From: Eledone cirrhosa
Lineage: Eukaryota
Reading direction: 5' to 3'
DNA: 64,000 bases
Assembly: GCA_964016885.1 (NCBI GenBank)
Contig: OZ024740.1
Coordinates: 271,684,001 to 271,748,000 of the forward strand
Position 1 is the stretch's first letter; each line of letters starts with the position of its first letter. Below the pieces are notes generated by a model. The model saw only the letters and a list, made by a program, of their open reading frames with translations. It had not been told where the DNA came from and ran no database searches. Positions 33,401-36,400 of the stretch are shown here, piece by piece. A program made the position numbers and the translations under genes.

Positions 33401-36400
33401 ATTATTTCTGGGTGGATTGGCAGTATCGGTAGAGGGTCGGACGCCATGCTTTCCAGCATAGTTATGTCCCTTTACGATCTGAGTTCAAATCCCGCCGAGG
33501 TTGACTTTGCCTTTCATCCTTACGGGGTCGATAAAATAAAGTACCAGTAATGCACTGGATAATTGCTGGCCTTGTGCCTAAAGTAGAAACAATTATTTCT
33601 GGATTGGCAAAGGGTCGGATGCCATGCTTTGACGCATAGAGTTACGGCCCTTCCATTCTGAGTTCAAATCCCGCCGAGGTTAACTTTGCCTTTCATCTTT
33701 ACGGGGTCGATAAAATAAAGTACCAGTCATGTACTGGGTAATTGCTGGCCTTGTGCCTAAAATAGAAACAATTATTTCTGAAGACAACATATATATGTGA
33801 AGTTATGTATATTTCCTCTGATAGTTTGTAATATTTTTACATAGATCTATATGATATACATACCAACACACATATATATCCTAGAAACGATCGTAAAATG
33901 ATGAATTTTTTAATATAAGGAACTTGTTCTTTGTTTTTATTAATTTATCTTGACTCTGTTTTCCTGTGATTTTCATCGAAAATTTTTGAATGCATCTTCT
34001 CTTTTCATATTTGGATTACATTGAGTTCTTCATACGGATTGGACACTACCATATATTTTGGTAGATTTATCTACATATATATATATATATATCAACACAC
34101 CCACACAAACAAACACAAATTAAGAAATGCTCAATGCTACCTTCAGTTATTCAAACTTATTTTCTCAAAAAGATTACCTACATATTCTCATTGGTAACAT
34201 CTATTTTTTTCCATCTTTATTATAAAGCAAGTCTTGCATACTGGCTGACACATGCAGACAGTATTAAGCAAGAGCAGAGGTAAGCCTAATCAAATACCTG
34301 TTTATCAAGCCACCTACACAGGTGAAATTTACACAGCCATCTAACAATAAGAAAAAACACAAAATCTAAAATAGTTATTAGTTTCAGTAGAGTGTCGGAC
34401 ACCATGCTTCGCAGCATAGAGTTACAGCCCTTTACGTTCTGATTTCAAATCCTGCCAAGGTAGGTTAACTTTGCCTTTCATTCTTACGTGGTTGATAAAA
34501 TAGAGTACCAGTAACACACTGAGATCGGTTTAATCAACTTTCCCTCCCCAAACATTGTTGGCCTTGTGCCTAAATCAGAAACCATTATTAGCTCTTAATA
34601 TCATCCTATAATGATTTAAAACCTGTCAGAGATAAGAAACCACTTTTAACCCTTTAGCATTTACATTACTCTATATTTACTATTGTATTTTTGTGGTAAA
34701 TGCTTTATCTTACATAATTATCCCACATAATATCGAATCTATGGGATTTTGATGTTATTTATTTTGAGAACAATACCTTAATGTCAGTATGAGCAGCCAG
34801 TTACGGTTGGTTTGAACAGAAAGAGGTGAGAAAATTCTGGCCAGATACGACTGGTTTAAATGCTAAAAGGTTAAAAAGGTTGAGAGAGAGAGAGAGATAC
34901 CCTCTGTGCCTTTCAAGTAACACCATTTAAAGTTCCTCTTTTTATTTTGCATCTGGTTTACAAAAGTTTAGTTAGTTTTGCAAACTTTGTTATTAGAATA
35001 GTAATTGTTAAAGAGATTTTTACAGATTGTTGTTCTAGTGAACCCCTCACCATGAAGTAGGAATTTACTCAGCACTTCACAATAACTGAAATGCCAGCAG
35101 CACTAAACTAAAAAACTACTCAGTATTAAAAATTATTTAATTTAAAGATAAAGAAACAAGACCACATGTAACAAAAAGCAATAACACAAGTCAGTGAGGC
35201 AACCTTTATGGGATTTAACCTGCTAAACATAGCAGCCAAATCTCTTTCAAACCACATGCTACTTCCTGAAGAAGAGGATGATTGAGATAGCACAATTTGT
35301 TATTTTTTGTTTTTTTTACCATAGGCCTGCTCAATCTAGGATAAACAACGAGTACAAAAATAACATTATCCACTATATTTAGACAAACTTCACATAATGC
35401 AAGAAATCTAGCCCATAAATGAGATACGAAGATGCACACTGGTCCACTTTGATAACGAAGAAACAATTAGATCAAACAATTTAGGAACTAAAAATATCTG
35501 AACAACTAAAAAACATGGGTGAGAAGAATAAAAAAAACAAACAAACCTGTTCCACAAAAATACCAAAGAACTTAAAACACCAACCCATGGAAAAAGAAAT
35601 AAAATTTTCAAATTAACAGGCTATACATGTTTCTATTTAACTTTTGACACTAGCCCACTTAAGACTGTTTCTAAGAGTCCATATTTCAACATAATTTTAC
35701 ACAAGAAACTTTTATTTAGATATGTTCCAAATGTCAGCTTTTTTAAAATTAAATCCCTCAAAATTAAAACACTCCATTTCATTAAAAATTACCACAAAAG
35801 GATTAATCAATCAGATTCACTGTTGGATGAAACTTCAGCATCTATGTAGGTTATAACTAACTGTCCATGCTAGACAAGTGTGTCTTTGATAGGAGGTGTT
35901 CCAGCGGTCAAGGGAATAGCCATAGCCATTAGCATTGATGGAGGCACATGGCTTAGTGGTTAGAGCATTGGCCTTGCAATCGAAAGGTTGTGAGTTCAAT
36001 TCTCAGACCGGGTGATGTGTTGTTTCCTTAAGCAAGACACTTTATTTCACATTGCTCCAGTTTACTCAGCTGTAGAAATGAGATGATAGGGACTGGGGTC
36101 CCTATCATTCCACTGCAAAGTGGTCGTGGAGGTGCCACAGCAAAAAAGCACCCAGCACTCACTGTAAATGAGGTTGGTGTTAGGAAGGGCATCCAGCTGT
36201 AGAAATCAAGCCAGAATCAGTTCCCGTCCCACCCTTGCAAGCAGGGTAAAAGTGGATGTAACATGAACGAATGAATTGAAGCGAAATGTGAACTCAGAAC
36301 ACAGACAACCTAAACAATTACCACAAGGTATGTTACCCAACACGAGCAATTCTGCCAATCCACAACCTGGAATTGGTATTTGATCAAGCCTGAAAAGATG

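Follow-up and report, generated by a model that had tools for sequence, protein, structure and literature searches.

The segment at 33771-33904 on the plus strand of the stretch of Eledone cirrhosa DNA analysed here (64,000 nt, hereafter the window) raises the question of whether a hammerhead ribozyme can be built around a stem II of about 100 nt, and if so what carries it, what its long arm might do and whether this copy could still act. The parts of the motif sit where an initial annotation had placed them, with a complete core in type I order. The 5' strand of stem I, at present 7 nt that derive from a target duplication (33771-33777), is followed by core box C3-A9 (CUGAAGA, 33778-33784), by a 99-nt stem II rod (33785-33883) and by the core G12-A14, palindromic stem III and A17 (33884-33895; GAA at 33884-33886, ACGAUCGU at 33887-33894, A17 at 33895). 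The predicted cut falls after 33895 (GUA), and the 3' strand of stem I, AAATGATGA, occupies 33896-33904. Read from the core, the rod consists of a C.A mismatch, an A-U pair, a position that is G-C in the family and A.C here, a C.C mismatch, an 11-bp helix, a second helix and apical helices. The two helices proposed earlier do pair, over 11 bp (33789-33799 with 33869-33879) and 9 bp (33804-33812 with 33854-33862), and the stem II fold of the window copy, at -23.3 kcal/mol (z -3.7), was equalled by 0 of 200 shuffles. Across both strands of the 64-kb window, our hammerhead descriptor matched this motif alone.

The motif is real and family-wide rather than a product of chance. An exact genome pattern consisting of both core boxes, ACGAUCGU and a stem II of 89-119 nt required to begin with C returned 11,300 matches, against 1 for the reversed-pattern control, and a DNA search of the genome returned 30 loci at 93-99% identity, the window's own locus excluded. 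Within 150 loci (663 kb), a set that is enriched because it was picked around these elements and partly overlaps, the descriptor gave 149 matches, compared with 0 in the reversed sequence and 0, 3 and 0 in block-shuffled versions. The loci in hand hold 73 occurrences of the motif in 59 distinct sequences, 57 of which form the family alignment, the two truncated ones having been left out. The initial annotation had staked its reading on conservation of the core boxes and of stem I in other copies: both core boxes are present in 49 of the 59 distinct sequences, and stem I is paired at 88% over the 57, SINE-interrupted and truncated ones included. The Rfam hammerhead models gave no match to the family and none at 28000-40000 of the window; over five loci they gave a single sub-threshold match, to a copy of a second family discussed below (family 2), at 21.2 bits for a threshold of 34. 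Rfam also missed a short-armed motif in another locus (L054), so arm length is not the sole cause of these misses. A metagenome search for relatives outside this genome found none.

The host was correctly recognised as a Penelope-like element (PLE) bearing a type I hammerhead with a palindromic stem III that favours a dimer, but its protein motifs make it a member of the Hydra clade and not, as had been proposed, a Naiad. Copies fetched by their reverse transcriptase (RT) include open frames of 817 aa in the order RT then GIY-YIG (YRDD at 346, YIG at 711). They contain RWR at 37, where K is replaced by R, DKT at 115, CNCRNKANC at 677 (the CxCx5C linker), CRLC at 775 (CxxC) and CNH at 803 (CxH). 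Hydra-clade elements are marked by a C-terminal GIY-YIG, RWK, DKT, CxCx5C and CxxC/CxH around conserved E and N (Craig et al. 2021, PMC8557442), and the Naiads described in the literature by an N-terminal endonuclease, DKA and no canonical hammerhead; here the endonuclease is C-terminal, the motif is DKT rather than DKA, and the hammerhead core is complete. Pfam gave no match on the whole 817-aa ORF and a weak GIY-YIG match alone on the window piece (E 0.097). Octopus Naiads do exist, some of them reported in the literature with 'half cores', and this is what could be said for the motif being a chance match or part of a Naiad; the 11,300 matches against a single control match, together with the C-terminal endonuclease and the DKT motif, refute that alternative, whose probability we consider negligible.

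The position of the motif in the element is only partly as first described. A 3'-terminal location is true of the window copy, whereas copies with long ORFs have one in each terminal repeat: at least 6 of the 20 RT-fetched copies (L068, L070, L073, L077, L080 and L084) show it on either side of the ORF, in the ORF's own orientation. The two hammerheads are 4.0-5.4 kb apart and the 3' UTR is long; Hydra-clade elements are generally shorter than 3 kb, although this is a tendency and not a strict criterion. The flanks of the window copy and of others place the insertions in (TA)n. In one subfamily (L070:7490-7600 and the 3' UTR of L068), two degenerate repeats of the hammerhead 5' half (ATTATTTCTGAGG...) lie upstream of the motif.

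In the window itself the element is a decayed, 5'-truncated copy (30723-34077, plus strand; blastn 87-94% to other copies) between (TA)n runs. Its broken RT - linker (CxCx5C) - GIY-YIG ORF (30723-32686, plus strand; identified by tblastn with the L070 ORF and from the ORF list) corresponds to residues 189-817 of the 817-aa protein, starting at codon 189 and interrupted by stops and frameshifts. The 3' motif stands alone with no second one, and the rest of the terminal repeat and the tail continue past the predicted cut (33905-34077, plus strand). The element lies antisense in an intron of UPF1 at 21517-54259 (minus strand; exon frames 54195-54449 and 21376-21516, and Pfam), the bounds of which are approximate and which we take as intron 1, further exons between being possible; UPF1 itself was placed on the minus strand by Pfam UPF1_1B at 10337-10732 (E 3e-35) and by further exon frames. 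As the initial annotation argued, a motif antisense to UPF1 does not cut the UPF1 pre-mRNA. The window copy is damaged and likely inactive, a dead passenger in UPF1. Two inverted structures lie nearby: at the element's 5' junction (30518-30713) a SINE end, (TA)n and an inverted SINE end form a 48-nt palindrome, and at 29535-29950 an inverted repeat of 149 nt, 97% complementary, has arms 118 nt apart.

The shortness of stem I in this copy is a consequence of two SINEs. The original 9-nt 5' strand, TCATTATTT, is found at 33399-33407 (plus strand), and the same strand lies directly 5' of the core in uninterrupted copies; here it is 364 nt from the duplicated copy that adjoins the core, split off by the two SINEs, and the proposal that a 9-bp stem I is restored on their removal, compared with 7 bp at present, is borne out. 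SINE 1 (33411-33591, plus strand; repeat family D8) is flanked by the duplication ATTATTTCTG at 33401/33592, and SINE 2 (33602-33770, plus strand; repeat match and duplication) was inserted in the duplicated target, leaving ATTATTTCTG at 33401, 33592 and 33771. From their A/B-box-like words we take both SINEs to be tRNA-type. The junction has been hit repeatedly: a SINE tail is joined to this core at 511 places in the genome, beside 3,885 uninterrupted 5' halves (the two patterns differ in length), and since truncations and duplication lengths differ among copies these insertions are independent. In the loci examined, a SINE is present at 10 of 57 motif sites compared with 3 of 284 at the element's 19 other ATTATT sites, sites and loci partly overlapping. 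The SINE tail itself ends in ATTATT, with 156,694 exact ends in the genome; 1,314 of its ends are followed by TCTG, of which 511 are this motif, and plain sequence preference possibly lies behind the hotspot.

Comparison among copies also corrects the picture of the stem II base. An unpaired base (caac/ccta), as described in the initial annotation, is true of the window copy and not of the family, as 48 of 54 family sequences have G-C where the window copy has A.C; because the responsible change, G33787A, occurs in just 2 of 54 rows (the window copy and one other), we read it as damage. A further change in the window copy, G33803T, removes the opening pair of the next helix. The family base, counted over 54 of the 57 rows, reads C.A mismatch, A-U (or G-U), G-C and C.C mismatch before the 11-bp helix, and the two pairs between the conserved mismatches are the family's stem II base. 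Position 10.1-11.1, which closes stem II, shows C.A in place of the usual G-C in 52 of 54 sequences of the main subfamily (1a) and in 20 of 22 of its sister (1b).

That this arm is maintained as a structure emerges from the contrast between the two subfamilies. In 1a, 94.8% of cells are paired over 57 sequences, vs 23-57% when the strands are slid against each other. The covariation check suggested earlier gave a divided answer: within 1a covariation does not rise above shuffles (4 pairs, reached in 70 of 500), while between 1a and 1b compensatory pairs are found. Subfamily 1b has 361 exact genome matches and lies behind a Hydra-type endonuclease that is 60-70% identical. Between 1a (54 sequences) and 1b (22), positions 2, 5, 6, 7, 10 and 11 are altered on both sides and still Watson-Crick, amounting to compensatory change at 6 of the first 11 stem II positions; this contrast is one comparison of two lineages and not six independent events. 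Positions 3, 8 and 9 are unchanged, and both mismatches (C.A and C.C) persist. The pair that opens the next helix reads G-C in 1a, and C-G in about half of the 1b sequences. Pairing at positions 8, 9 and 11 of 1b is present in only 14-15 of 22 copies, partly through changes in the length of a C run. The 1b counts use 22 of 23 distinct sequences, gapless from the core, one without its 3' half having been left out, and the subfamilies were aligned by register from the core because MAFFT displaced the helices; its alignment did not enter the counts. On these comparative grounds stem II is a conserved structure that was kept paired while its sequence changed, and the idea of a long-stem-II variant extends from the window copy to the family.

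What such an arm is for is less settled. The arm would point away from the core and selection would maintain its rod shape; a protein-binding or folding domain that serves a slow, protein-assisted cleavage is its most likely role. Our second choice, which we hold to be less probable though a serious competitor, is that the arm is a tolerated, neutrally growing insertion with no function of its own, in which pairing matters only to spare the core from misfolding. Neutral growth would fit the ladder of arm lengths formed by the families of this genome (12-14, 26-36, 47-52, about 60, 86-97 and 97-115 nt), a 114-nt subfamily whose arm was lengthened by a small tandem duplication at its tip, and the occurrence of genomic copies with internal deletions. 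It sits less easily with the retention of both mismatches and of the apical region between 1a and 1b while the helix sequence was replaced, and pure drift does not predict long arms in several unrelated families.

The ends of the arm suggest a further alternative, namely that most of it is a spliceosomal intron (donor AG/GUAUGU, acceptor CCUAG) whose removal would leave a 17-nt stem II and switch the ribozyme. The donor hexamer GTATGT is present in 1a and 1b and is the same as that of the UPF1 exon 1 donor, CTAAC precedes the AG in 2 of 4 copies tested, the 17 nt left would have the size of published Hydra arms, and the Penelope of D. virilis has an intron overlapping its hammerhead (PMC4209133). 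The joined junction, however, occurs in 0 genomic copies as opposed to 3,885 unspliced 5' halves, and no contig joint across the arm was seen in four runs, one of them RNA, where contigs can show presence and not absence; rare splicing could escape both searches. The acceptor is poor in U (2-5 within 17 nt, vs 10-12 in four UPF1 acceptors); splicing in 1b would delete G12; the AG arises from the C.A mismatch together with G12 and recurs in the 47-52-nt families; and family 2 is by inspection without an internal donor. We thus found no support for an intron in the arm and regard it as very improbable.

The palindrome of stem III bears on how the motif might be cut. Stem III forms 2 bp in a monomer and 8 in a dimer, and the dimer fold is predicted to lie 14.8 kcal/mol below two monomer hammerhead folds in five ACGAUCGU copies and 18.9 kcal/mol below them in family 2. 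Of six copies tested, three (the window copy, L004 and L070) have the dimer hammerhead as their two-strand cofold minimum; in the others the minimum lies below it, by 2.4 kcal/mol in L083, 8.0 in 1b and 4.6 in family 2. All families listed have A, U or C as the base at the cut, a restriction that the descriptor itself imposed; stem I lacks the internal loop through which stems I and II usually make contact. The main doubt concerns the C.A closing mismatch, which could slow cleavage: U-U is the best tolerated mismatch at this position (PMC3088659), and a precedent for C.A at the sequence level is PLE-X1_cBra (File S2, PMC8557442). PLE hammerheads cleave weakly and as dimers (PMC4209133; the dimer model also appears in the review PMC6765202), and one of them, in Anolis, requires the element's protein, with insertion in vitro proceeding without need of cleavage and, in the data described there, no reads ending at the cut site (PMC11167929).

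The explanation that we consider best, and hold with fair assurance, is that a high-copy Hydra-clade PLE carries this motif as its type I hammerhead, in both terminal repeats and with a paired stem II of about 100 nt; in intact elements two copies likely pair through ACGAUCGU and would cut after GUA/GUU, the window copy being damaged and likely inactive. The sequence, the place in both repeats, the size of the family, the clade motifs and the compensatory pairing of the arm all speak for this explanation; the dimer fold is a prediction, and release of a unit by cleavage is what we infer from it. Two motifs of a tandem transcript would pair via the palindrome and cut out a unit RNA of about 4.0-5.4 kb, in a reaction that would be slow and probably helped by protein as in Anolis. 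The template that is reverse-transcribed would be uncut RNA or a re-ligated circle, since genomic copies run past the cut site. Among 56 measurable copies, 27 of which came from a query extending 60 nt beyond the cut, 54 continue at least 59 nt past it: 19 end at 59-76 nt, 25 at 190-210 nt, a further 10 continue in the direction of the ORF, and the remaining 2 are shorter. The two fixed ends show that the copied template reaches beyond the cut site and fit the tail signature of PLEs (PMC11167929).

Those same ends are what an uncut template would be expected to leave (PMC11167929), and together with the C.A closing mismatch they lend something to the idea that the hammerhead shape is kept while catalysis is very slow or dead, the fold serving as an RT binding or start signal. 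The core boxes and the palindrome are nevertheless kept across subfamilies, and between families the palindrome varies self-complementarily (ACGAUCGU, ACGGCCGU, ACAAUUGU and ACUAAUUAGU), so that we judge this idea unlikely and retain dimer cleavage as the preferred reading. At L070:2990-3005 the summed contig depth of run X4 relative to run X1 rises 6.8-fold across the predicted cut, the downstream side being the higher; run X4 is RNA-like (it holds a spliced UPF1 contig) and X1 DNA-like, and contig depth cannot show ends or levels. We do not count this step as evidence, because transcription starting close by, or inefficient copying through the hairpin, would give the same picture.

The arm belongs to a broader series in this genome. 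In the enriched set of 150 loci (663 kb), the descriptor recovers arms of 12-14, 26-36, 47-52, 86-97 and 97-115 nt, and a genome pattern for arms of 56-86 nt gave 1,574 matches vs 26 in the control; abundant families with a stem II of about 60 nt and the palindrome ACGCGCGU (L151-L178) account for part of these. Further hammerhead families with arms of 12-52 nt and a palindromic stem III were seen in L009, L023, L035, L054, L090, L106, L114 and L117. Family 2 has a 97-nt arm folded as a three-way junction, a G-C closing pair, the palindrome ACGGCCGU and GUC at the cut. Its covariation comprises 8 pairs with two-sided changes (0 of 500 shuffles) in an alignment of 13 rows, 12 of 24 distinct sequences plus L050, most of it coming from two divergent rows. 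At large (L043-L067, L008, L101, L106, L219, L220) this group has three-way-junction stems II of 82-97 nt, G-C or U-U closing, and ACGGCCGU, ACAAUUGU or ACGAUCGU. Family 2 is apparently an ORF-less, circularly permuted, retrozyme-like unit of roughly 0.7 kb; an ORF beside it in L067 was ruled out as its parent, as that ORF comes with a short hammerhead-like motif of its own. A second very abundant PLE family (L088-L120), with a C-terminal GIY-YIG and a CxxxxCxxC linker, has a short non-canonical hammerhead-like motif after its ORF and is presumably Neptune- or Nematis-like.

Much of this design is familiar from known systems. With Hydra-clade PLE hammerheads, Hydra-1_Obim included (PMC8557442, section 11 and File S2), our family shares the type I order, a place near the element end, a self-complementary stem III, the extra base often found on each side of stem II, the insertion in (TA)n and the protein motifs; the Hydra arms listed there are about 10-25 nt long, whereas those of our family measure 97-115 nt, stack four helices and close with a C.A mismatch. 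The longest arms in that File S2, about 50 nt, belong to plant PLE-X elements, among which PLE-X1_sMoe and PLE-X1_sTam have a loop 2 of 29-35 nt and PLE-X1_cBra the C.A closing mismatch; these three are plant EN-less elements with arms about half the length seen here or less. With the minimal dimer hammerheads of PLEs (Cervera and de la Pena 2014, PMC4209133; Lunse et al. 2017 via PMC6765202) it has in common the motif in both terminal repeats, the palindromic stem III, the lack of a canonical stem I-II contact and the predicted dimer, whereas their 'large' helix II is 6-8 bp with a conserved G10.1-C11.1 and ours about 35 bp in one arm. The mammalian discontinuous Clec2 hammerhead (PMC6765202) likewise has a long insertion between its halves, but one of several hundred nt in an mRNA 3' UTR and not the conserved paired stem II of a retrotransposon. 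Family 2 resembles animal non-LTR retrozymes (PMC7229834; bioRxiv 10.64898/2026.07.22.740005) in its seemingly ORF-less unit and type I hammerhead, and differs from them in its 97-nt three-way-junction stem II. In the literature on PLE or cephalopod hammerheads that we covered, such a long stem II was not found described, and variants of this kind could be present in the alignments of Lunse et al. 2017 or in the supplementary material to PMC4209133 and to the bioRxiv paper. By these comparisons the combination of a Hydra-clade PLE with a dimer-type hammerhead is known, and what appears new is an arm of about 100 nt, several times the length of those of described relatives.

Searches of animal genomes for hammerheads have used short stem II limits, such as a 7-17-nt core spacer (PMC8557442), and so have likely missed the more than 11,000 copies of this family along with other long-armed families. 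Naiad_Ovul and Naiad_Esco are marked 'HHR_half_core', with core halves 35-50 nt apart (PMC8557442, File S1), and may be complete long-armed hammerheads. Going further, we tentatively entertain, as a doubtful conjecture, that in octopus PLEs and retrozymes stem II could have become an RNA domain in its own right, specific to each family and as long as 115 nt, which would bind the protein that the element encodes and so license cleavage of the dimer, in which case tens of thousands of hammerheads would be invisible to current descriptors and the 'half-cores' of cephalopod Naiads may be among them. This single genome offers natural arms ranging from 12 to 115 nt, subfamilies related by compensatory change and parent elements with open ORFs, which makes the role of stem II directly testable.
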